The notes under the pieces: model-generated | Databases searched by the model: none | The model's input: the letters and a program-made list of their open reading frames with translations, nothing else | What the model was told of the DNA's origin: nothing | Source of the DNA: Promethearchaeota archaeon | GTDB taxonomy: Archaea; Asgardarchaeota; Lokiarchaeia; Sigyniarchaeales; SOKP01 | Length of the DNA stretch: 14,328 nt | NCBI GenBank assembly: GCA_018238625.1 | Contig: JABCSY010000102.1 | Span: 1-14,328 of the forward strand | Direction of reading: 5' to 3' | Shown here: in pieces, positions 2-14,328 of the stretch | How positions within the stretch are numbered: the first letter of the stretch is position 1 | How the letters are laid out: every line of letters starts with the position of its first letter | Program-made: the position numbers and the translations under genes

Positions 2-664
2 ACCGGACAATTAGGGAGTAAAGATAATTAAGGTAGATTTCAAAAAACAAGAAACATTGAAGAATGTAAGAAATCCTTCTTAAAAATGTTATCTACTTTA
101 GAAATTGATTATGTAGACATTCTTAATATACAATTTGTTACGCTGAAAGATTTACCTAAGATATTTAATACGGGAGGTTTATTTGAGTTAGCATTATCGT
201 TTCAAAAAGAAGGAAAAGCTAAATTTATTGGACTTAGCACTCATAACGTATCAATTGCCATACAAGCTGCGAATAGTGGAAAATTTGATACGATCATGTT
301 TCCAATTAATTTAGTAAATCATAAATTATCTGGTAGGGATGAACTATTAACAACATGTTTGAAGAAAAGAATTGGCTTAATAGCAATAAAACCTTTTGCT
401 GGTGGAAAGCTATTAATGCGTAATCGAACAGTATATATCGCAAAGTATCAAACAGGAGGAATTAAGTTCAAAAAAAAGATTCCTCGAGATATAACACCGA
501 TGAAATGTATAAATTACGTAAATTCCCTTCCTGGAGTCTCAGTTGTTCTTACAGGAGTAAAAAGTGTTGAAGAATTAAATGAAAATCTCAAATATTTAAC
601 TCAGCAAGAAAAGAATCAAGATATTTCATCGTTAATAGAATTTTTCAAGAATGATACAGATTAA
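2..664 (+). pseudogene. Aldo/keto reductase-like oxidoreductase, 5'-truncated by the window edge, with in-frame TAA at 29-31 (possible pseudogene or sequence error)
   Basis: ORF 86..664 has AKR-like motifs DYVDIL, GKAKFIGLSTH, MFPINL, GLIAIKPFAGGKL and VVLTGVKSVEEL. The same frame upstream reads TGQLGSKDN*GRFQKTRNIEECKKSFLKM, which resembles continued AKR sequence, so ATG 86 is probably internal. Confidence 0.65.
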
Positions 665-2628
665 ATTGATTTGTGCCAGATTTGCATTTTGTCTGGCCCC
701 CTATTACTCCACGCAAAATAGGGTATTGCTGTGAATATCTCGTTGTTTGAATTTTTTCCGGTAATGATATTAATTCCTCCTAATAGTTCTGGTTTATATT
801 TAACAATAAATTCTTGATTTCTTGGGATAATAGTCTTAAAAATATCGAACTTTTTATTATCTTTCTGTTCTAGACAATAGATTAAAGGACCGTAAGATAT
901 TGCCTCTCGACCTCTATTATCCTTGATTCTTGGGTCGCTTTCAATTAAATTTGGTTTCATTTTAAAAGTAAGCAAGATAATATCGTTATCTAACCAATTT
1001 CTTAATATTTCCACATATTTCCCTTTAGAGAGCCCATCAGAGTGTTTTATACCATTAACTTTTAGCTCGGCGTCGATGCTCCAATTTGGAATTCTAAGGA
1101 ATATCGAAAATTTTTGACTTTTACTTAAATTAAGGTGAATCTCTACCTTCCCTTTCCACGGAAAAAGACTTTTTTGGCTGATTTTAATTAAATTTGAGCG
1201 GAAGTTAATATTAGTCGTATTGCCAATGTATTGATGAATCCAAATGCCTTTTTCTGATGTACTATAGATATATTGCCCTAAAGATGCAATTGTACGAGCA
1301 ATATTAGGGGGGCAGCACGCGCAAAGAAACCATTCTTTTCTTTCATCTTTACCATGCGAAATTAAAGGGTTGTCGTATGTGTATTTTTTACCATCTATAG
1401 ATTGTCCCACTAACATCGCGTTGTATAACAGTTTCTCGATTAAATCTGCATATTTACAATTACCCGTTATTTGAAGCATCCTCCAATTCCACATCAAGTT
1501 TCCAATAGCTGCACATGTTTCCGAGTAAGAATTTCTATTTCCTAAGGCAAAATCTTTTCCAAAACCTTCGATACTTCTTTCTGAACCAATTCCTCCCGTA
1601 ACATACATTCTTGCCTTATACATCTTTAACCAAATTCTTCTGAGAGATTTCAATAAGGCGTCATCACCCGTCTCAGAATAGAGATCCGCCATACCACAAT
1701 AAAGATACATCGCTCTTACGGCATGCCCAACAGGCTCAAATATGCTTCTAACTGGTTTGTTGGATTGAATGAAATTACCGTTAAAATTTTCGCGGATTAA
1801 TCTTATAAAATGCTTTATGGTAAGTCCCGATACAAATTCGGCTACTTCACTTTGTACACTCGAAATATCTTTTCCTTTAACTTCTTTTTCGTATTCTAGA
1901 TTTTTTTTCTTAGCTAATTTTGTAATATATCCCATATTTAGATATTGGTTTATAACGTATGTTTTAAAATTGGAGATTTTTCCCCTTCGATTAATGAATT
2001 CTTCAGCGAGCTCCAAGTAACTAGGTTTATTTGTTAATCTATACAATTCAATTAGAGCTAATTCGATCTCTTCGTGCCCTGGAACCCCTTTCCTTTTCCC
2101 TCCTAAAAAGGTTTTTACGAGCAAATCAGCAAATTTAATAGCTACATTTAGTAGCGTTTCTTTTCCTGTTGCAATATTATGGGCTACCGCAGCTTGAATT
2201 AAATGACCTGCACAATAAAGTTCATGCATAATATAAAGATTTGTGAACCTCTCTTGAAGAAATCTCGTCGAATAGAATGTGTTCACGTACCCGTCTTCAC
2301 TTTGACTTTTGTCTATTAAATCAACGATTTCATTCGCCTTTAATTCCAAGTCGGGATCGCTGTGTGTGTGTAAAATATAACTCGTTGCTTCCAACCATTT
2401 ATATAAATCTGAATCGTAGTAAAACTCACCTATTTGAACTCCTTTTTTAACGCCTCCAGCAACTCTAAAATTGTCAATGTGGTGATCTTGCTCCAGTTTT
2501 TCGTGCTGTAAGTGAATTGACACGTCTCTATTGATCTGTTGCCTTTTTGCCCAAAAATCATCGTTAATTTGAACTTTATAGAATGGAACGTAAGAAAGTT
2601 TGTTATGGGGGCGTTTTATTAAGTCCAT
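661..2628 (-). CDS. Glycoside hydrolase family 127 (beta-L-arabinofuranosidase-like, HypBA1/DUF1680)
   Basis: Motifs DSDLYKWLEA, HELYCAGHL, GHEEIELAL, GHAVRAMYLY, YSETCAAIG and WFLCACCPPN. The Glu/Cys zinc ligands and Cys nucleophile region typical of GH127 are present. Confidence 0.93.
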   Translation of the reverse strand: MDLIKRPHNKLSYVPFYKVQINDDFWAKRQQINRDVSIHLQHEKLEQDHHIDNFRVAGGVKKGVQIGEFYYDSDLYKWLEATSYILHTHSDPDLELKANEIVDLIDKSQSEDGYVNTFYSTRFLQERFTNLYIMHELYCAGHLIQAAVAHNIATGKETLLNVAIKFADLLVKTFLGGKRKGVPGHEEIELALIELYRLTNKPSYLELAEEFINRRGKISNFKTYVINQYLNMGYITKLAKKKNLEYEKEVKGKDISSVQSEVAEFVSGLTIKHFIRLIRENFNGNFIQSNKPVRSIFEPVGHAVRAMYLYCGMADLYSETGDDALLKSLRRIWLKMYKARMYVTGGIGSERSIEGFGKDFALGNRNSYSETCAAIGNLMWNWRMLQITGNCKYADLIEKLLYNAMLVGQSIDGKKYTYDNPLISHGKDERKEWFLCACCPPNIARTIASLGQYIYSTSEKGIWIHQYIGNTTNINFRSNLIKISQKSLFPWKGKVEIHLNLSKSQKFSIFLRIPNWSIDAELKVNGIKHSDGLSKGKYVEILRNWLDNDIILLTFKMKPNLIESDPRIKDNRGREAISYGPLIYCLEQKDNKKFDIFKTIIPRNQEFIVKYKPELLGGINIITGKNSNNEIFTAIPYFAWSNRGPDKMQIWHKSI

Positions 2629-2658: not shown

Positions 2659-4092
2659 TTATTTATTATTCTTTGAACTAGATAGCTTTTCTTTTAAACG
2701 ATCAATTTTTTCTATATGTAAAATACTTACTTGTCGTTTCATCTCTTTATATTCTTTGCTAGCACCATCAAGCGGATAATACCACAACGAAACTAATCCA
2801 ACCACAATAAAGATTGCTGGAATTAGCCCAATCAACAACTTTATTCCAATTATTGCGCTTATTGGCTGAGTTTCACCTACTCCTAAATTTTGATTAAAAT
2901 TAGTAAAAACGAATATATATCCTGAAATCATCGCGGAAACCGATTGAGCAGGTTTAGTAACAAGTGCGTTAATCCCAAAAAAGGCGCCTTCTCTTCTCTG
3001 ATCCGTGTCTAATTCGTCTTTGTCAATTATATCGGCTAATAACGTGAAAACCAATAATGTTTGACCTGAATAACCAAATCCAATTATCATAAAAGAAATG
3101 TTAGCGAAAAGTGCGTCGTTCGAAAAAGTAACTAATATAAAACCAAAAACTACTATTATCGAAAGATAAAACAACGCTCTTTTATTTCCTTTCTTTTTGT
3201 TTAGATATAAGCCTACGGGGTATCCAAAAATAGAAAATATTATAAACATTAGTAAAGGAGTCGAACCAAGTATGTTGTCGCTTGACACGCCCAGTACGTC
3301 AGCCATATAGAACGGCAAATTCGATTGAATCGCAAATACTACGTAAGTCATCATGAAATTAAATATAACGAAAGTTAAAAATGCCTTATTCTTAAGCGTT
3401 GTTTTAGTACAATACCATATACTTAGTTTCTCTGATTTTTCTGGCCAAAATTCAGGACGCTCCTTAATACCAAATGCTGTAAATGCTAAAAGAATCGCTC
3501 CAAATAAAGCAAGAATCAATACGATGTTATAGAAGGCCGGCAAATTTTGAGAAAAAGGAACGACATCTAAATCAATAAATAATATAGGAAGGAGGTAAGT
3601 AATAGAAATCCCAAAACCAGAACCCACGCCCGCAAATAAATTTAGTTTAGCGCGCTCGTTTGAGTCGATCGTTAACTCTGCCATAAGCGAATTAAAGTTC
3701 AAACCAATTATCGTGAAAAAACTATCGTATATAATTAATGTAGTTAGTAACCAGACGAAATAAACCCATTGCTCGCTAACCGCGGGAGTAGCATAGAGTA
3801 AAATGAAGCTTAACGATAGCAAAGGACCACCAACCATTAAATACGGCATTCTCCTTCCATATTTAGTGTGGGTTCTATCGGACAACAGCCCAAAAAGGGG
3901 GTCGTTAACGGCGTTCCATATCAAATAGACAAGCCAAGAAAAAGCCCATAACAAAGGGTCTAAACCGATCATTTTGATGTAAAATATTAGCGTCCACGCC
4001 GCAAATAGTCCCGTTGTTAAATTAATCCCAAACGACCCTAGACCGTAAAAAGTCTTTGTTTTTAGAGAGAGTTTATTATATTCGAATCCCAT
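2659..4092 (-). CDS. MFS transporter, glycoside-pentoside-hexuronide (MelB-like) family
   Basis: About 12 hydrophobic segments. Motifs WNAVNDPLFGLLSDRTHTKYGRRMPY and LADIIDKDELDTDQRREGAFFG. Ends 30 bp upstream of the GH127 start on the same strand, so probably an operon. Confidence 0.92.
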   Translation of the reverse strand: MGFEYNKLSLKTKTFYGLGSFGINLTTGLFAAWTLIFYIKMIGLDPLLWAFSWLVYLIWNAVNDPLFGLLSDRTHTKYGRRMPYLMVGGPLLSLSFILLYATPAVSEQWVYFVWLLTTLIIYDSFFTIIGLNFNSLMAELTIDSNERAKLNLFAGVGSGFGISITYLLPILFIDLDVVPFSQNLPAFYNIVLILALFGAILLAFTAFGIKERPEFWPEKSEKLSIWYCTKTTLKNKAFLTFVIFNFMMTYVVFAIQSNLPFYMADVLGVSSDNILGSTPLLMFIIFSIFGYPVGLYLNKKKGNKRALFYLSIIVVFGFILVTFSNDALFANISFMIIGFGYSGQTLLVFTLLADIIDKDELDTDQRREGAFFGINALVTKPAQSVSAMISGYIFVFTNFNQNLGVGETQPISAIIGIKLLIGLIPAIFIVVGLVSLWYYPLDGASKEYKEMKRQVSILHIEKIDRLKEKLSSSKNNK

Positions 4093-6200: not shown

Positions 6201-6485
6201 GTGATTTTCATAAGTACCGTCCGGATTGATAAAAAACATTTAAAATTGTTGGATAAATTGGTTTCTCATTTAACTTTACGAGGAAATAAAATAAGCAAGA
6301 AGGGTATAGTAGCAAAGCTAATTGAGGATGCAATGATAGCTGAAGGTCTTGAAGAAAATGAGGTTCCAGGTTCAATAACCGATGATCACGCATGGAAAGG
6401 ATTGAAAGATGTTTTTGAGTTAGGTATTGAAGATTTATCGGAAAAAGTCGACGAAGTTTTATATCAACTGAATGGGGAAGAATAA
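6201..6485 (+). CDS. Putative VapB-like antitoxin (ribbon-helix-helix-like N-terminus, acidic C-terminus)
   Basis: STVRID strand followed by predicted helices. Acidic tail (ELGIEDLSEKVDEVLY). The stop lies 1 bp before the likely toxin ATG. The start codon is uncertain. Confidence 0.7.
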   Translation: MIFISTVRIDKKHLKLLDKLVSHLTLRGNKISKKGIVAKLIEDAMIAEGLEENEVPGSITDDHAWKGLKDVFELGIEDLSEKVDEVLYQLNGEE

Positions 6486-6486
6486 T

Positions 6487-6897
6487 ATGGCTGTTTTTTT
6501 AGATACAGGATTTATATTAGCAGTTAAGAATAAGGACGATAAAAATTTCCAAATTGCCCAATCTTGGATGAGGAGGTTTCTAAAAAATGAATTCGGGGAG
6601 ATATATACATCTACATTAGTGTTTAATGAATTGGTGACCTTAGCATTGGTAAGAATAAAGCGTCCTGATTTTGCGATAAATCTGGGAAATTATATTTTGA
6701 AGAGTAGAAAGATAAAGATGATTAGTTTTACTGATGATGATTTTAAGAATTCTTGGGAGATCTTTCAAAAATATAAGGAAAAAAGATTATCTTTTACCGA
6801 TAGCTCCATTTTAACTCATTGTAAACGTTTAAACTGCAATTTTTTAGCTACCTTTGATAAGCACTTTAAAGGTTTAATACCCTCAAATTTAAGTTGA
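6487..6897 (+). CDS. vapC: PIN-domain VapC-family ribonuclease toxin
   Basis: Acidic PIN residues in VFLDTG, VFNEL, SFTDSS and ATFDKHF. ATG 6487 (MAVFLDT) is preferred over 6472 because it directly follows the antitoxin stop. Confidence 0.9.
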   Translation: MAVFLDTGFILAVKNKDDKNFQIAQSWMRRFLKNEFGEIYTSTLVFNELVTLALVRIKRPDFAINLGNYILKSRKIKMISFTDDDFKNSWEIFQKYKEKRLSFTDSSILTHCKRLNCNFLATFDKHFKGLIPSNLS

Positions 6898-7491: not shown

Positions 7492-8070
7492 ATGACCTTT
7501 GAACATGAAGTCCAGCCTTATTACATATTTAAGATATGTCTGTTGGGTCAAGGTGGTGTGGGAAAGACGTGTATAGCTAGAAGACTATGCTTTGATACAT
7601 TCAACGCAAACACAAGACTCACTATAGGAATTGATTTTTACACTTACGACATCCCTCTTGTAGTAAATGGCGATAAAACTTATGTTCGATTGAGTATATG
7701 GGATTTTGGCGGTCAAGAACAGTTTAAAAAAATGTTTAGTTATTATATCCATGGAGCAAACGGTATTTTTATGGTATTTAGCCTATTCAACCTTAATAAC
7801 ACTTTACTTGGCTTAGATTGGTGGTACGAGCACTTAATTAAGCAAAATCAAAAAGACACTCCGAAATTATTAATTGGTTGCAAAAGTGATTTAGCTGGTA
7901 GCCTTGAAAAAGTAGATGAGTTAGTAATTGAGAATTTTAGTAAGAAACACGAGAAAGTACAGTTTATTAAGACGTCTGCGAGAGACAACCTTAACATTAA
8001 AGAAATGTTTGTAGAGATAGCAAAACTAATCATGGATACTAATAATTTTAAATACGATAAAATTCTCTAA
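7492..8070 (+). CDS. Rab-like small GTPase (Ras superfamily, Asgard type)
   Basis: G1 GQGGVGKT, G2 TIGIDF, G3 WDFGGQE, G4 variant CKSD and G5 TSAR. No C-terminal cysteine prenylation motif. Confidence 0.93.
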   Translation: MTFEHEVQPYYIFKICLLGQGGVGKTCIARRLCFDTFNANTRLTIGIDFYTYDIPLVVNGDKTYVRLSIWDFGGQEQFKKMFSYYIHGANGIFMVFSLFNLNNTLLGLDWWYEHLIKQNQKDTPKLLIGCKSDLAGSLEKVDELVIENFSKKHEKVQFIKTSARDNLNIKEMFVEIAKLIMDTNNFKYDKIL

Positions 8071-9219: not shown

Positions 9220-10689
9220 TTAATTTGGTTTAGTAGACAACCGTTTTCTCTTCCGACCATATTTATATAAACTTAGGAAAGATTTTGCAGCACTTTCTAT
9301 TGAGGGATACACTAAAAATCCACCCTTGACCAACTTATCGTGGAATATTTCTCTAGTTTCGCTTGGATATTGATGAAGAATAATGATGAAAACTTTTTCT
9401 AAGGATTCAGCATAGGTTTTTATACCATGTAAATTGTTGTAATAATCCTTAAACCTAACATCGTTTAAATCCCTCCAAGCGTCAGTCTCTACTATAATTA
9501 AATCGATCTCATCATCTATCGCTCCTTTACATACCTCTAAAAATACTTTATCAGCAACAACCCATGGCATATCAAAAGGGTTAGATAAACTACCGATTTT
9601 GATGGGGTAAATTTTTTTCAGTTTTTCTAGCTTTTCCCCTTCGAATAGTGGTAATTCTAAGCCTAATTCTGTTAAAGTATCGGTTGCCAAGATTCCAAAT
9701 CCTCCGGACCATAGAACAACTAAAGCCCGTTTACCTGATGGATAGATAACTTTTTTATTTAATTTTTTAAATTTTTTTATATAATTTGAAAAAAGGTAAG
9801 CGTAGTCAATCAGCTCATCTAATGACGGTGATATTTCCATAATGGCTGTTTGGTTAAAAATCGCGTCCCAAATCTTATGTTCAGACGCCATTGAACCAGT
9901 ATGAGTTAAAACTGCTTTCTGGCCTCGTTCAGTTCTACCCCCTCGCATAAAAAGTATTGGTTTTTTTGTATCTTTAAACGCTTTTAGTAGCTTTTTCCCT
10001 TCATTTTTATGCAAAATGGATAAACCTTCGAAGTAAACACAAATCAAATCAGTTTCGTCGTCGTCGTTGAAATATTGTAGAAGTTCAGAAACTTGTATGT
10101 CAATGCAATTACCTATGCTTACTCCTTTTGAAAATCGTAGGTTGTACCTTCGAGAACTAAATTTAACCATTTTGGAATGCAAATCTCCCGATTGGAAGAT
10201 TAAGCTTATATTCCCGCTTTCAACCGGAAAAGAGGAGTAATACGCGACCTTTCCGCGTGGGCAATACAAACCCATACAATTTGGTCCTATACTTCTGGTT
10301 TCTGGATAATTCATTAAAATTTCTTTTAAATCGCTTTCAATTTTAAGTCCTACTTCGTCAGATTCTGCAGTTCCAGCAGTAAAAATATGAATAAAATTTA
10401 TTCTCTTTTTAGATAACAATTCTTTTAAAGTTTGAACTACAATCTCTCTTCTAATGGATAAAATCAGTAAATCTATCGTATCGGCTGGAACATCGTCAAT
10501 GGATTTAAAACATTTTATTCCTAAAAGTTCGTCTTCTTTGGGTGAAACTAAGTAAAGTTTTTCTAAATCAAATCTTTGTCTAACAAAGCCTTCGATAAAA
10601 AAAGAAATTTTTGGTTTAGCTTCAAAAATTAATACATTTGTTGGTTTAAACAATAGTTCTAAAGAATTTGTGTTACTTTTTATTTCCAA
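9220..10689 (-). CDS. NDP-forming acyl-CoA synthetase alpha-subunit-like (CoA-binding) protein
   Basis: Motifs GPNCMG, QSG, VSIGN and YFEG, the phospho-His loop GRTERGQKAVLTHTGS, plus SGGFGILATD and SNPFD. Confidence 0.87.
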   Translation of the reverse strand: MEIKSNTNSLELLFKPTNVLIFEAKPKISFFIEGFVRQRFDLEKLYLVSPKEDELLGIKCFKSIDDVPADTIDLLILSIRREIVVQTLKELLSKKRINFIHIFTAGTAESDEVGLKIESDLKEILMNYPETRSIGPNCMGLYCPRGKVAYYSSFPVESGNISLIFQSGDLHSKMVKFSSRRYNLRFSKGVSIGNCIDIQVSELLQYFNDDDETDLICVYFEGLSILHKNEGKKLLKAFKDTKKPILFMRGGRTERGQKAVLTHTGSMASEHKIWDAIFNQTAIMEISPSLDELIDYAYLFSNYIKKFKKLNKKVIYPSGKRALVVLWSGGFGILATDTLTELGLELPLFEGEKLEKLKKIYPIKIGSLSNPFDMPWVVADKVFLEVCKGAIDDEIDLIIVETDAWRDLNDVRFKDYYNNLHGIKTYAESLEKVFIIILHQYPSETREIFHDKLVKGGFLVYPSIESAAKSFLSLYKYGRKRKRLSTKPN

Positions 10690-11284
10690 TGCGTTCCCCT
10701 AACTCGTTTGTTAAAAGATTATTACAATTATAACAGTATTTGGGAACCGAATTAAATTCTGTTCCACAATTATGACATGTTATTTTACTTTGAAGTTCAA
10801 TCTGCTTTAAATTTTCTTCTTTTGTTTCTTTTTTAAAACACTTGGTAAATTTTAAGATTAACGATAACCCAATCGAAGTAATTACGATCGTAATACCCAA
10901 AATGATTGTTTTTATAATAAGTGAAGGAAAAAGAGCAGTAAAATCTGTTTCTGAGTACCGGTAATAAAAAACATAAAAGAAGAAGTTAGGAAAAAAGAAT
11001 GTGAGCAAATTCATAGAATAAGCCTTCTTGAAATCCTTAAAAATAAAAATTGGTATTAATGATACTAAAATCCAAGTAAAACATACATACATAAAACCAA
11101 ATCTATTGCTATACATAATAAAATTCGAAAGAAGTTGGATTATCGACTTTCTTTCCTCTGAAATTGAGCTAGTAAACTCGGTTTGAGAGTTATATTGAAA
11201 TATTAGCATGAATAAACTTAAAATTAAGATTTGAATAATGAAAAGCACTAATTTACTTTTAAAACAATTCCTTGGCTTCATCAC
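10673..11284 (-). CDS. Membrane protein with C-terminal zinc ribbon
   Basis: About 4 TM helices followed by CHNC-x10-CYNC. Overlaps the next gene's start by 17 bp. Confidence 0.8.
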   Translation of the reverse strand: MMKPRNCFKSKLVLFIIQILILSLFMLIFQYNSQTEFTSSISEERKSIIQLLSNFIMYSNRFGFMYVCFTWILVSLIPIFIFKDFKKAYSMNLLTFFFPNFFFYVFYYRYSETDFTALFPSLIIKTIILGITIVITSIGLSLILKFTKCFKKETKEENLKQIELQSKITCHNCGTEFNSVPKYCYNCNNLLTNELGERIGNKK

Positions 11285-11470
11285 TAATTAATTAAAAATA
11301 TCCATAAATTAAACTCTTTGATATAAATTAATAAAAGAAAAGATAAAAAAATGCCTAATCCGAAAAATTTTTAATATTTGCTTGCTTAAATTCTTTATAG
11401 TGCAGAACTTGTTAACTTATTCTTTATTGTATTATATTGTTAATCTAAAATCTAAGAGTGATTTGGGTTT

Positions 11471-14328
11471 ATGAGCTATTCGTTTAGTCGTACTAAATTA
11501 ATTGATAAAATCAAATTCGGGTTGTTAAGCCCCGACGAGATTAGAAAGATGTCTGCTGCTAGAATTATAACAGCCGACACATATGATGAAGATGGACTCC
11601 CGATTCCTTCTGGCCTTATGGACCAACGCTTAGGAACTATTGAGCCCGGACAGAGATGTCAAACTTGTGGTAATCTCGTAAGTAACTGTATGGGTCATTT
11701 TGGGCATATTGAACTCGCCCGTCCCGTAATCCATGTCGGATATGCGAAAAAAGTATTGAAGGTCTTAAGAAGCATCTGTCCAGAATGTTCGCGGTTAATG
11801 CTGACAGAAGAAGAAATGGAGGGCTTTAGAGAAGACCAAATAAAACACAGAAAGATATACTCTGATGCGGATGCAGAAGCAACAAAGCTTGTATTCAAAC
11901 TTGCGCGAAAGAGTAAGATTTGTCCTTATTGTGGAGCTAAAAAGAAGAAGATAGTTATCGAAAAACCTACAACTTATTACGAAGAGGAGGAAAGTAAGGG
12001 TTCTCATAGAATAACTCCTATTGAGATATTAGAACGCCTTAAAATAATGACTGATAACGATCTTAGGATTTTAGGAGTATCTCCTGAAAACGCAAGGCTT
12101 GAATGGGTTATATTTACTGTTTTATCGATTCCCCCCGTTTGTGCGAGACCCTCTATTACTTTAGATAGTGGAATCAGATCTGAAGATGATTTGACTCATA
12201 AATTAGTAGATGTTATTCGTATTAATCAAAGATTAAGAGAAAATATTGACGCTGGTGCCCCTCACTTAATTGTTGAGGATTTATGGGAATTGCTCCAATA
12301 TCACATAACTACTTATTTGGATAACCAAGTGTCAGGAATTCCTCCAGCAAGACATCGCTCGGGAAGGGCATTGAGAACACTCACCCAGAGATTAAAAGGA
12401 AAGGAAGGGAGATTTAGAAGTAACCTTAGCGGAAAAAGGGTTGATTTTTCCGCTCGATCAGTAATATCACCATCTCCTTATATTAGTATTAACGAAGTGG
12501 GAGTACCATTGGCCATTGCTAAAATTTTAACTATTCCAACTAATGTTAACGATTGGAATATCGAAGAAATGAAACATTTGGTTTTAAAAGGGCCATTCGA
12601 TCATCCAGGAGCTAATTATATAATTAGAACCGATCGTAGAAGAGTAGACCTGCGATACGTTAAAAATCGAGAGATTATAGCTGAAATGCTCGCTCCTGGA
12701 TTTACTGTTGAACGCCATTTAGCAGACGGTGATTTAGTATTATTCAATCGGCAACCTTCCCTTCATAGAATGTCTATTATGGCTCATGAAGTAAAAATAA
12801 TGGAAGGTAGAACTTTCCGATTGAATTTGACAGTTTGTCCACCATATAATGCTGATTTTGATGGCGACGAAATGAATTTGCATGTTCCCCAAAGTGAAGA
12901 GGCTCGAACGGAAGCTGAATTATTACTCAAAGTTCAAGAGCATATTTTATCTCCAAGATTTGGTGGACCAATTCTTGGAGGGATTCAAGATTTCATTTCT
13001 TCAGTCTTTCAATTTACCAGTTTAAATTCACTATATAACAAAAAAGATGCTTTAATGTTATTTTATTTAGGAGATGTTTTTAAAACTAAACCCGAATTTA
13101 ATTTAGAAGATTTAACTCCCATAAAAACAGACCCTGAACCGCTCTACTCCGGAAAACAAATTTTTAGTACTTTATTTCCTGACGATTTAAATATAAAAGT
13201 CAAATCAAAATTTTGCAAAAAATGCGATGTATGCGAAAAAGAAGCCTGTCCGTACGATGCATATGTTGTAATTAAAAACGGCATACTAATAACTGGAACC
13301 ATTGACGAAAATTCATTTGGAGCTATGCAATCTAATAGCATTTTACAGAGGATAATTAAAGACCACGGAAACGCTCGTGGAAGAGAGTTTTTAGATAGCG
13401 CTACAAAAATGTTATTGTATGTTATCCGACAAAATGGAATGACAATGGGCTTAGATGAAGTATATGTTCATGGAGAAGCTTACGAAAAAATTCAAAAAAT
13501 ATTGAAAGACGCTAACGACGAATCACAAAAATTAATAAAAGCTCTATTCGAAAACGATACCACCGTTTTAAGAAGAGCTCCTGGACGCTCAATGCGCGAA
13601 ACACTGGAACTCAGAATTCGACAAATACTTGCTGAAGCGCGAAAAATGGCTGAAGAAACAGCGTCTGACTATATAGGAGATGAAGCTCATTCTGTAATTA
13701 TGACAAAGTCAGGTGCGAGAGGAAATATATTAAATTTAGGACAAATGTCTGCCGTAGTAGGACAACAAGCGATTAGAGGCGAAAGAATCAATCGAGGATA
13801 TATTTCAAGGGCACTTCCTCATTTCAAAATAAATGATTTAAGCCCTAGAGCTCGTGGTTTTGTCGAATCATCTTACCGAAAAGGGTTAAAACCAGCAGAA
13901 TTCTTCTTCCATGCGATGGGTGGAAGAGAAGGCCTTGTAGATACGGCTGTTCGTACATCCACTAGTGGATATATGCAAAGAAGGCTTGTAAACGCTTTAC
14001 AAGATATGATAATTGAAAACGACGGGACTGTAAGAAATAGTGACAAAAATATTATTCAGTTTAGATATGGTGATGACGGCATAGACCCTATGCATACCGA
14101 TCATTCTGCAGCTGTAAATCTTGATGTATTGCTACTTAAAGCTAAAGCACTTGATATTAATCAAATTCGAGAAGAAATTAAAGAATTGCCAAAACCTAAA
14201 GCGACGACAAAACCTAAAACAACGACAAAACCTAAAACAACGACAAAACCTAAAACAACGACAAAACCTAAAACAACGACAAAACCTAAAACAACGACAA
14301 AACCTAAAACAACGACAAAACCTAAAAC
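11471..14328 (+). CDS. rpoA1: DNA-directed RNA polymerase subunit A' (Rpo1N), 3'-incomplete, with in-frame repeat extension
   Basis: Manual translation from ATG 11471 gives IKFGLLSPDEIRKMS, CQTC...CMGHFGHIEL, RLKGKEGRFRSNLSGKRVDFSAR, catalytic NADFDGD (12848-12868), bridge helix FFFHAMGGREGLVDTAVRTSTSGYMQRRL and QFRYGDDGIDP. All motifs are in one frame and I saw no stop before the window end (at least 952 codons). Confidence 0.97.
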   Translation, partial: MSYSFSRTKLIDKIKFGLLSPDEIRKMSAARIITADTYDEDGLPIPSGLMDQRLGTIEPGQRCQTCGNLVSNCMGHFGHIELARPVIHVGYAKKVLKVLRSICPECSRLMLTEEEMEGFREDQIKHRKIYSDADAEATKLVFKLARKSKICPYCGAKKKKIVIEKPTTYYEEEESKGSHRITPIEILERLKIMTDNDLRILGVSPENARLEWVIFTVLSIPPVCARPSITLDSGIRSEDDLTHKLVDVIRINQRLRENIDAGAPHLIVEDLWELLQYHITTYLDNQVSGIPPARHRSGRALRTLTQRLKGKEGRFRSNLSGKRVDFSARSVISPSPYISINEVGVPLAIAKILTIPTNVNDWNIEEMKHLVLKGPFDHPGANYIIRTDRRRVDLRYVKNREIIAEMLAPGFTVERHLADGDLVLFNRQPSLHRMSIMAHEVKIMEGRTFRLNLTVCPPYNADFDGDEMNLHVPQSEEARTEAELLLKVQEHILSPRFGGPILGGIQDFISSVFQFTSLNSLYNKKDALMLFYLGDVFKTKPEFNLEDLTPIKTDPEPLYSGKQIFSTLFPDDLNIKVKSKFCKKCDVCEKEACPYDAYVVIKNGILITGTIDENSFGAMQSNSILQRIIKDHGNARGREFLDSATKMLLYVIRQNGMTMGLDEVYVHGEAYEKIQKILKDANDESQKLIKALFENDTTVLRRAPGRSMRETLELRIRQILAEARKMAEETASDYIGDEAHSVIMTKSGARGNILNLGQMSAVVGQQAIRGERINRGYISRALPHFKINDLSPRARGFVESSYRKGLKPAEFFFHAMGGREGLVDTAVRTSTSGYMQRRLVNALQDMIIENDGTVRNSDKNIIQFRYGDDGIDPMHTDHSAAVNLDVLLLKAKALDINQIREEIKELPKPKATTKPKTTTKPKTTTKPKTTTKPKTTTKPKTTTKPKTTTKPK
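14192..14328 (+). repeat. 18-bp coding tandem repeat (AAACCTAAAACAACGACA)n encoding KPKTTT
   Basis: Seven full units plus 11 bp. The first unit has GCG (KPKATT) and the rest are identical. The array runs to the last base. Confidence 0.97.

Follow-up and report, generated by a model that had tools for sequence, protein, structure and literature searches.

The window analyzed here is a 14,328-bp stretch of DNA that makes up an entire contig (JABCSY010000102.1, referred to as C85) in the assembly of a Promethearchaeota archaeon (genome G000; 4.29 Mb, 201 contigs). Its last gene, rpo1N, encodes subunit A' of RNA polymerase (RNAP), and the reading frame of this gene runs past the canonical end of the protein into tandem copies of the hexapeptide KPKTTT that extend to the contig end. 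The explanation that we favor, with moderate confidence, is that the repeat is an expanded lysine-rich flexible linker within a lineage-specific Rpo1N tail, which ends in a small folded module and a stop codon and serves as a tether presenting this docking module. The tail was found in two families (f1 and f2), both from a single order of the Promethearchaeia (Lokiarchaeia-type Asgard archaea). It is laid out as the canonical A' of ~900 aa, a lysine-rich linker, one to three modules with a predicted helix, beta-hairpin, and helix, a stop codon, ~30 nt of spacer, and a separate rpo1C gene. The modules share the motif L-x-E-E-x-L-R-x-L-Y-x-x-E-T-G-K-N-A-x-W-R-G-K-x-T-K-x-Y-x-x-W-K.

The rpo1N tail in the window and in related genomes

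The rpo1N frame at 11471-14326 on the forward strand is translated into 952 residues without a stop. In Pfam, its product matches Rpb1 domains 1-4 and, in domain 5, the first 66 of 267 positions (E-values from 2.6e-94 to 1.4e-26); the split archaeal Rpo1N, or A', shows this pattern. The product can also be aligned to solved Rpo1N chains (E about 1e-56), which consist of 880, 906, 907, and 910 aa. The last aligned positions of these chains, residue 869 in the Sulfolobus chains (880 aa) and residues 894-897 in the Thermococcus/Pyrococcus-type chains (906-910 aa), correspond to residues ~885-890 of the window frame. Since the C-termini of the solved chains lie ~10 residues farther on, A' should canonically end near residue 900, and the frame does extend past this point. 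In the same alignment Rpb1 runs on past residue ~881, where archaeal A' chains stop; the A' C-terminus presumably lies where Rpb1 carries the foot domain, on the periphery of the enzyme. The features of the gene end are as follows.

11471..14328, forward strand: rpo1N (RNA polymerase subunit A'), 5'-complete, with the 3' end lost at the contig end; 952-aa open frame.
13883..14170, forward strand: last canonical part of A', with GGREGLVDTAVRTSTSGYMQRRL (which we take to be the bridge helix), the YGDDGIDP motif, and the end point of solved archaeal A' chains near residue 900.
14132..14191, forward strand: genus-conserved helical stretch LLLKAKALDINQIREEIKELP leading into the linker, from the alignment of 17 congeners.
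14190..14328, forward strand: 18-bp tandem array with the consensus AAACCTAAAACAACGACA in the reading register, encoding the Lys/Pro/Thr-rich linker, from Tandem Repeats Finder (TRF) and translation.
G000:C131:537-673, outside the window: module and stop codon of rpo1N, from the alignment with G016 and G008.

After ...YGDDGIDPMHTDHSAAVNLDVLLLKAKALDINQIREEIKELP, the protein continues as KPKATT(KPKTTT)6KPK up to the contig end, the first lysine of the repeat being residue 908 (nt 14192); here translation and TRF agree with the initial annotation. TRF reports a single 18-bp array at 14190-14328 (7.7 copies, 98% matches, no indels, score 264). The remaining 16 of the 17 TRF rows in the window have scores of at most 58, so the array stands far above the window background. 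Half of its residues (50%) are threonines, and the KPKTTT repeat is absent from every other contig of the 201-contig assembly. The observation of a KPKTTT extension on Rpo1N is thus confirmed. The frame had also been described as open to the window end, and there is indeed no stop in the window; however, because the window is a whole contig, the frame is open where the assembly breaks off within the repeat, and the copies counted are a minimum. In this genome, the 18-bp unit has thus grown to at least seven near-perfect copies, at which the assembler stopped.

Comparison with related genomes shows what follows the repeat. With the last 148 residues of the window Rpo1N as a query, the gene was found in 37 of 41 related genomes, and 29 loci were read. 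In 27 of these, the canonical end is followed by a lysine-rich linker, a ~40-aa module, and a stop codon, the stop coming after the module in every module-bearing tail (27/27). One of the two exceptions (L011, G020:C59) is cut by the contig end, which falls inside KPKATTKPKATTKPK, and it is also the only one of the 29 loci where no stop is reached after the tail. An overlapping contig of the same genome (G020:C114, locus L050) spans the whole linker, ...IKESPKIKTTTKKPKATTKPKATTKPKKPDIKKKPEPDRKDQTLSDEDL...KEKLG, its tail reading ...IKESPKIKTTTKKPKATTKPKATTKPKKPDIKKKPEPDRKDQTLSDEDLRALYEKDTGKNAEWRGKLTKGYLEWKKEKLG up to the stop, after which rpo1C begins with ATG. The other exception (L035, G039:C81), from family f2, contains a masked stretch and no recognizable module; this sole outlier has a strongly acidic E/D/L-rich Rpo1N tail and a (RRGRRT)n end. 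A separate rpo1C with its own ATG follows in all four cases read: C131 of the present genome, G016, G008, and L050.

The linker itself is variable. The nearest relatives have (KKPKATT)x3 (G016) and KKPKATT-KPKAKT-KPKATP (G008), that is, only two to three imperfect units, so the perfect KPKTTT array is a private expansion of this genome. Short peptide repeats recur in other relatives as well, such as KKPTT in two to three copies, (KKKTTT)x3-4 in G036, and (KKKTP)x4 in G028, and some relatives lack a repeat. In 27 relatives, the linkers contain 26-46% lysine, 0-21% proline, and 4-20% threonine, compared with 50% threonine in the window array. Thus, the conserved feature of the linker is its basic low-complexity character alone, and neither the hexad nor the high threonine content is conserved. 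The initial annotation had proposed that its view would fail if the repeat were private and close relatives ended Rpo1N earlier. The perfect array is private, as described above, but the tail on the catalytic subunit is not: it is conserved in relatives, none of which ends before it. Linker lengths are 20-44 aa in the genus and ~90-200 aa in f2 and in other relatives read from the same order. The longer linkers of f2 are accompanied by three module copies in G028 and G025; three copies are also present in the record titled Candidatus Harpocratesius repetitus FW102.

An AlphaFold2 (AF2) model of the 124-aa G016 tail, built on the alignment of 17 congeners, assigns the linker a predicted local distance difference test (pLDDT) score of 44-57 and no secondary structure, and the module a pLDDT of 88-91. 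Together with the lysine-rich composition, this bears out the earlier description of the tail as basic and predicted to be disordered. The same model has helices at residues 18-27 and 30-39, which supports the helical nature of the stretch LLLKAKALDINQIREEIKELP, whose columns are invariant or nearly so among the 17 congeners.

The taxonomic distribution of the tail was assessed with a profile of 28 modules (A1; E<=1e-4) in 201 genomes evenly drawn from the phylum. The module was matched in all 40 genomes of f1 and all three of f2, and in none of 157 genomes of 25 other families. A conserved piece of Rpo1N was matched in 192 of the 201 genomes. In all 42 genomes of f1 and f2 with an Rpo1N match (39 of f1 and three of f2; G169 has none), a module match follows the Rpo1N piece on the same contig and strand at a distance of 100-900 nt, as judged by comparing coordinates by eye. 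In f4, a family of the same order, the module occurs in 4/4 genomes, only in proteins of ~300 aa, and the two Rpo1N frames seen there have 906-908 aa; in the single genome of f3, which is 66% complete, the module was not found. Most of the listed Rpo1N open frames outside the order have 880-935 aa. Frames of 1303-1422 aa that contain Rpo1N were observed in f18, f15, f11, and f16 (G081, G074, G047, G052, and G191); these are probably unsplit A'A'' genes of other Asgard lineages.

Relatives of the module are encoded by 120 stretches in a species-level genome collection; in 77 of the best 80 of these 120, a single open reading frame (ORF) includes both the bridge-helix motif and the module. The module-bearing records are titled Promethearchaeota or Promethearchaeia, in agreement with the earlier view of this enzyme as a probable Asgard RNAP; a few carry the names of other Asgard phyla and one a bacterial name. 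Among these are L059, L065, L073, L075, and L081, titled Nanopelagicaceae bacterium, Hermodarchaeota, Thorarchaeota, Hodarchaeota, and Odinarchaeota, respectively. Their Rpo1N module tails are 79% (L065), 78% (L059), 74% (L073 and L075), and 72% (L081) identical to those of the genus, which suggests that the taxon labels given by the submitters are off.

Probable continuation of the gene on another contig

The missing 3' end of the gene is most likely located on contig C131 of the same assembly, the evidence being sequence comparison. Positions 537-673 of C131 encode ...PDQKDQTLSDEDLRELYEKDTGKNAEWRGKLTKGYLEWKKEKLG, followed by the stop codon TAG (671-673), a 29-nt spacer, and the ATG of rpo1C. 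The rpo1C gene (C131:703-1905) is a 400-aa ORF with its own start, and the genes for L30e, NusA, and S12 come next. Positions 66-265 of PF04998 map to C131:823-1704; hence the remainder of Rpb1 domain 5 is encoded by a separate rpo1C, as expected for split subunits. Since the tail follows position 66 of domain 5, it is located where A' and A'' are split rather than at the A'' end, as the initial annotation had stated.

In DNA alignments with the rpo1N 3' ends of the congeners G016 and G008, C131 is near-identical between position 537 and the start of rpo1C, and it shows no relationship upstream of this position. The upstream piece (C131:1-535, locus L007) holds the 5' part of a minus-strand gene whose product is 45% identical to a relative on C40. 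The G+C content is 49% at C131:100-520; in 500-bp windows of the genome it averages 32.1% (standard deviation 4.5%), and 0.19% of the windows reach 47%. In three public runs, the Logan contigs covering C131 from position 536/537 onward extend upstream as ...CTAAAAAACCAGATATTAAAAAACAACCCG, a linker-coding sequence that resembles G008 and G016, unlike the GC-rich piece. No Logan contig from four runs matching C131:1-1000 spans position 536 from the GC-rich left part, where the cover is sparse (69-305 in run X1 and 239-315 in run X8); these data are contigs rather than raw reads, their ~2% difference from C131 indicates that they stem from near relatives and not from this strain, and missing cover is no evidence. 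A 35-nt look-alike (523-557) among the Logan contigs belongs to an unrelated organism and was disregarded.

Given the G+C content, the onset of homology at 537, and the Logan contigs that continue as linker, C131 probably begins with a misjoined foreign GC-rich piece of ~535 nt, a chimeric assembly join behind which the module and stop of rpo1N would have landed. The real gene would then run from C85 through (KPKTTT)n to C131:537-673, and the joined product would read ELP-(KPKTTT)n-...PDQKDQTLSDEDL...KLG, followed by a stop and rpo1C. The minimum length of this Rpo1N is 952 + 44 = 996 aa, which agrees well with the 975-995 aa of the open frames of congeners. A 47-aa frame of C131 that starts with the ATG at 530 was considered as a separate small gene and rejected, because homology to the rpo1N 3' ends of relatives begins at 537 in mid-linker and continues to the same stop and rpo1C spacer.

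The terminal module and the proteins that carry it

The 28-module profile yields the consensus xxxLxEExLRxLYExETGKNAEWRGKLTKGYLEWKKEK over ~40 aa, with the invariant residues K19, A21, R24, G25, T28, and W34. Modeled alone, the module has a mean pLDDT of 87.4, with a helix at 6-17, a hairpin at 22-27, and a second helix at 29-39. The tails of G000 (C131), G016, G028, and G038 match no Pfam-A or NCBIfam family above the cut-off. A Foldseek search of the module model against the PDB returned 14 matches, the best with E=2.5 and none at E<=0.001. In the ESM Atlas, the best scores (0.77-0.79, to 58-aa clusters) are below the level reached by shuffled sequences. The homodimer prediction scored 0.00 against a mark of 0.42, a value that speaks neither for nor against self-association. 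A description of the Asgard Rpo1N tail was not found in the full-text literature, although subscription-only papers or supplementary files could hold one; the accessible parts of PMC11894787 and PMC13257274 do not mention it. Thus, the module is apparently an undescribed mini-domain, and the tail is apparently a lineage-specific appendage of a known enzyme.

The module is found on many other proteins. A profile search against 1.84 billion representatives identified 358 proteins at E<=1e-3, of which 52 reach E<=1e-10. Pfam partners were tallied for the 93 proteins of at least 130 aa among the 150 matches listed; P0017, a repetitive bacterial-type surface protein with eight short, apparently spurious matches, was left out. 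The partners are Rpb1_5 in eight proteins, LRR in four, Beta_helix/NosD in three, and Ribosomal_L13e in three, with single cases of Ras/Roc/Arf, RVT_1 (reverse transcriptase), Cap4 nuclease, ArdC/metallopeptidase, and a BBS-like propeller. Large membrane-anchored beta-helix proteins likewise carry the cassette of a K/P-rich leash and a module at their cytoplasmic C-terminus, as reading of the sequences revealed.

The genome of the window contains 12 module matches: the Rpo1N module on C131 and those in nine other ORFs, one of which has three copies. By inspection of the sequences rather than by a library scan, the nine comprise four response-regulator-like proteins and an ABC ATPase, all with an N-terminal module, two membrane proteins with a C-terminal one, the three-copy protein, and a protein of 1690 aa. 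Four paralogous proteins of ~280-330 aa start with the WRGK module (G000:C127:29174-30019, C77:14790-15626, and C138:37457-38362 and 38561-39562); after it, inspection suggests a ribbon-helix-helix-like stretch, a HisKA-like helix, and a receiver domain.

Possible roles of the tail and their significance

Two functions can be proposed for the tail. Through the polycationic linker, which is long and flexible, the polymerase may touch DNA or RNA without sequence specificity, much as the lysine-rich C-tail of Rpo13 or the tails of histone H1 do, and the linker would at the same time be a leash that presents the terminal module. The module, in turn, most likely serves its carriers as a general adaptor or docking domain, their common ligand being a protein hub or a polyanion. 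Such a general role is suggested by the range of proteins to which the same module is attached, often with the same K/P-rich leash: eL13, small GTPases, response-regulator-like proteins, an ABC ATPase, and, on their cytoplasmic tails, membrane proteins. The module would localize or bridge RNAP rather than act in catalysis. The KPKTTT unit and its copy number probably represent a nearly neutral microsatellite expansion that would change only the length of the leash.

Among the known systems, the closest counterpart of the tail seems to be a basic tail of the H1 or Rpo13 type to which an adaptor domain is joined. In the RNAP of Sulfolobales, according to the available part of PMC3479171, the lysine-rich C-tail of Rpo13 is required for non-specific binding of double-stranded DNA, which its deletion abolishes, and is invisible in crystal structures. 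Both cases involve a lysine-rich disordered tail on an element of an archaeal RNAP. However, Rpo13, a small subunit in its own right, is bound between Rpo5 and the clamp head and belongs to a different phylum; it lacks a terminal module and is unrelated in sequence to the Rpo1N tail. The C-terminal domain of histone H1 and other (S/T)PKK-type basic tails are another reference. The Rpo1N linkers share with them a disordered low-complexity character and a high lysine content (about 30-40%, with a range of 26-46% among relatives) along with proline, alanine, and threonine, and some relatives have TPKK-like motifs such as KKPTPKK and (KKKTP)x4. The differences are that the Rpo1N tail is attached to an enzyme and not to a winged-helix histone, and that the KPKTTT array of the present genome lacks an (S/T)PKK motif. 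The initial annotation had listed a phosphorylatable platform, an H1-like tail, and a linker of a fused subunit as options for the repeat; of these three, the H1-like basic tail appears to fit the conserved composition best.

Several points weigh against the role of a tether with a docking module. Nucleic-acid binding and docking are suggested by composition and domain distribution, and the AF2 models of a 40-residue domain are built on alignments that are shallow (28 and 17 rows) and consist of closely related sequences. The partners are heterogeneous, with ~14 of the 93 being nucleic-acid-related and ~12 of the 93 belonging to signaling or the cell surface, so that no single ligand is indicated; most of the remaining carriers have no Pfam domain. 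The join between C85 and C131 is bridged by no read or contig, and the stretch between the repeat and C131:537 is unseen. Finally, K/T-type repeats also occur in distant relatives (G036 and G028, as above), and this recurrence implies that threonine may count for more than a neutral microsatellite would allow. Recurrent K/T/P composition could arise from A/C-rich DNA in a genome of 32% GC; this is possible for the repeat but does not explain the conserved module.

An extension of the docking scenario is that the cassette of the leash and the WRGK mini-domain constitutes a lineage-specific address-tag system. By way of A', eL13 of the large ribosomal subunit, small GTPases, response-regulator-like proteins, and cytoplasmic tails of surface proteins, it would tie transcription, translation, and membrane or signaling complexes to a shared hub or to each other. 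We consider such a system unlikely. If it existed, the address tags would organize gene expression in space by means of a scaffold, in prokaryotes closely related to eukaryotes, and the number of repeats would tune the reach of the RNAP leash.

The module might instead be a nucleic-acid-binding domain distantly related to the N-terminal hybrid-binding domain (HBD) of RNase H1, anchoring RNAP, eL13, reverse transcriptase, and other carriers to duplex RNA or RNA:DNA hybrids. The two domains share the pattern A-[IV]-x-R-G-[RK]-x-T-x-x-[FY]-x-x-W, and the invariant module residues K19, R24, G25, T28, and W34 are basic or aromatic. PF01693 matches the third module of L037, one of four proteins scanned, over profile positions 4-21 of 44 (E=0.006; 17.2 bits with a cut-off of 21), and the HBD of human RNase H1 (3bsu) matches with E=0.41, AiwRGKlTKgYleWkk being aligned with AVRRGRKTGVFLTWNE. 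But both similarities are weak and partly dependent on each other; they cover ~16-18 aligned residues, under half of the HBD, and the Pfam cut-off over the whole profile is not reached. The topology predicted by AF2 (helix, hairpin, helix) places the KGYLEW segment in a helix, whereas we take the equivalent segment of the HBD to be a strand. The structure 3bsu is not among the Foldseek matches described above, and many carriers of the module are membrane or signaling proteins. A kinship with the HBD therefore appears improbable.

Another possibility is a regulatory platform similar to the C-terminal domain (CTD) that the largest RNA polymerase II (Pol II) subunit carries, where threonine-rich repeats would be phosphorylated or otherwise modified and recruit factors during the transcription cycle. 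Several features are shared with the YSPTSPS heptads of Rpb1: both tails are low-complexity, disordered, and composed of tandem repeats with threonine and proline, both belong to the largest-subunit lineage of a Pol II-like enzyme, and in both the number of repeats varies between lineages. The half-threonine array of the window and the K/T or TP repeats of other lineages, which form TPKK-type motifs, can be cited in favor of such a platform, as can the disorder predicted by AF2. However, the lysine-rich hexad is replaced by KKPKATT, KKPTT, KKKTTT, KKKTP, or nothing in relatives, the unit varies even within the genus, and threonine falls to 4-9% in the linkers of many congeners while lysine remains at 26-46%. 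No conserved heptad unit of the YSPTSPS type is present. The conserved element is the folded module at the end of the tail, to which the repeat is a linker, and the tail is attached at the A'/A'' split rather than at the C-terminus of a complete largest subunit or of the A'' equivalent. A CTD-like platform built on the hexapeptide, as envisaged earlier, is thus poorly compatible with the relatives, and we regard it as distinctly unlikely. The resemblance to the Pol II CTD, which had already been taken as analogy, is an analogy at most and not homology; the tail is not an ancestor of the Pol II CTD.

It is highly improbable that the repeat is an assembly artefact or a chimeric end outside the real gene. 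In favor of such an artefact, the array is perfectly periodic over the last 125 nt before the contig ends, the same assembly contains the odd join at the start of C131, and its contamination is estimated at 7.59%. Against this stand a junction of E[LS]P and K-x-K-[AT]-T-T with KPKATT-type units at the same place in the independently assembled G008, G016, and G020, and the presence of at least half of the sampled 31-mers of window positions 13800-14328 in 12 of 24 listed public runs from several studies (best 0.95). In addition, a de Bruijn assembler emits only k-mers present in reads, so the true array should be roughly as long as seen. The chance that the repeat links the two parts of an unsplit A'A'' subunit, as suggested by the frame being open to the window end and by the few Rpo1N frames of 1300-1420 aa elsewhere in the phylum, is close to negligible, since in-frame stops follow the tail in 28 of the 29 loci read (all but L011, which meets a contig end) and in all 27 module tails, the stop at C131:671-673 precedes the rpo1C ATG at 703, and rpo1C has its own ATG in the four cases read.

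The window also contains other genes. Upstream of rpo1N (gap 11285-11470) there is no rpoB; two divergently oriented genes, a CoA-ligase-like ORF (9220-10689) and an unassigned ORF at 10673-11284, are found instead. The single Rpo2 match is on another contig (G000:C24:27282-28403), in an apparently unsplit open frame of 1127 aa. A Ras/Roc/Arf-type small GTPase of 192 aa (7492-8070, forward strand; Pfam Ras E=5e-34) fits the Asgard origin of the DNA, and in another organism the WRGK module is present on a GTPase of the same class (P0006). A PIN-domain ORF (6472-6897, forward strand) overlaps the end of a 94-aa ORF (6201-6485), and the two may form a VapBC-like toxin-antitoxin pair. A gene for a GH127 beta-L-arabinofuranosidase-like protein (661-2628, reverse strand) adjoins an MFS_2 sugar transporter gene (2659-4092, reverse strand), the two forming a small sugar-use cluster.

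To our knowledge, the catalytic subunits of archaeal RNAPs are usually described as lacking any tail. The Asgard archaea considered here, an entire group at the order level, have a conserved A' tail that consists of a disordered basic leash and an uncatalogued mini-domain, and the same mini-domain marks a ribosomal protein, GTPases, and membrane proteins. The rpo1N genes of these metagenome-assembled genomes are often cut at the repeat, which should be considered in their annotation. With its small size (about 40 aa), its well-predicted structure, and its presence in many species-level genomes, the module makes the proposed role amenable to testing. For the evolution of transcription in this group, the tether explanation would mean that docking-type disordered, repeat-prone tails on the polymerase arose within the Asgard archaea.

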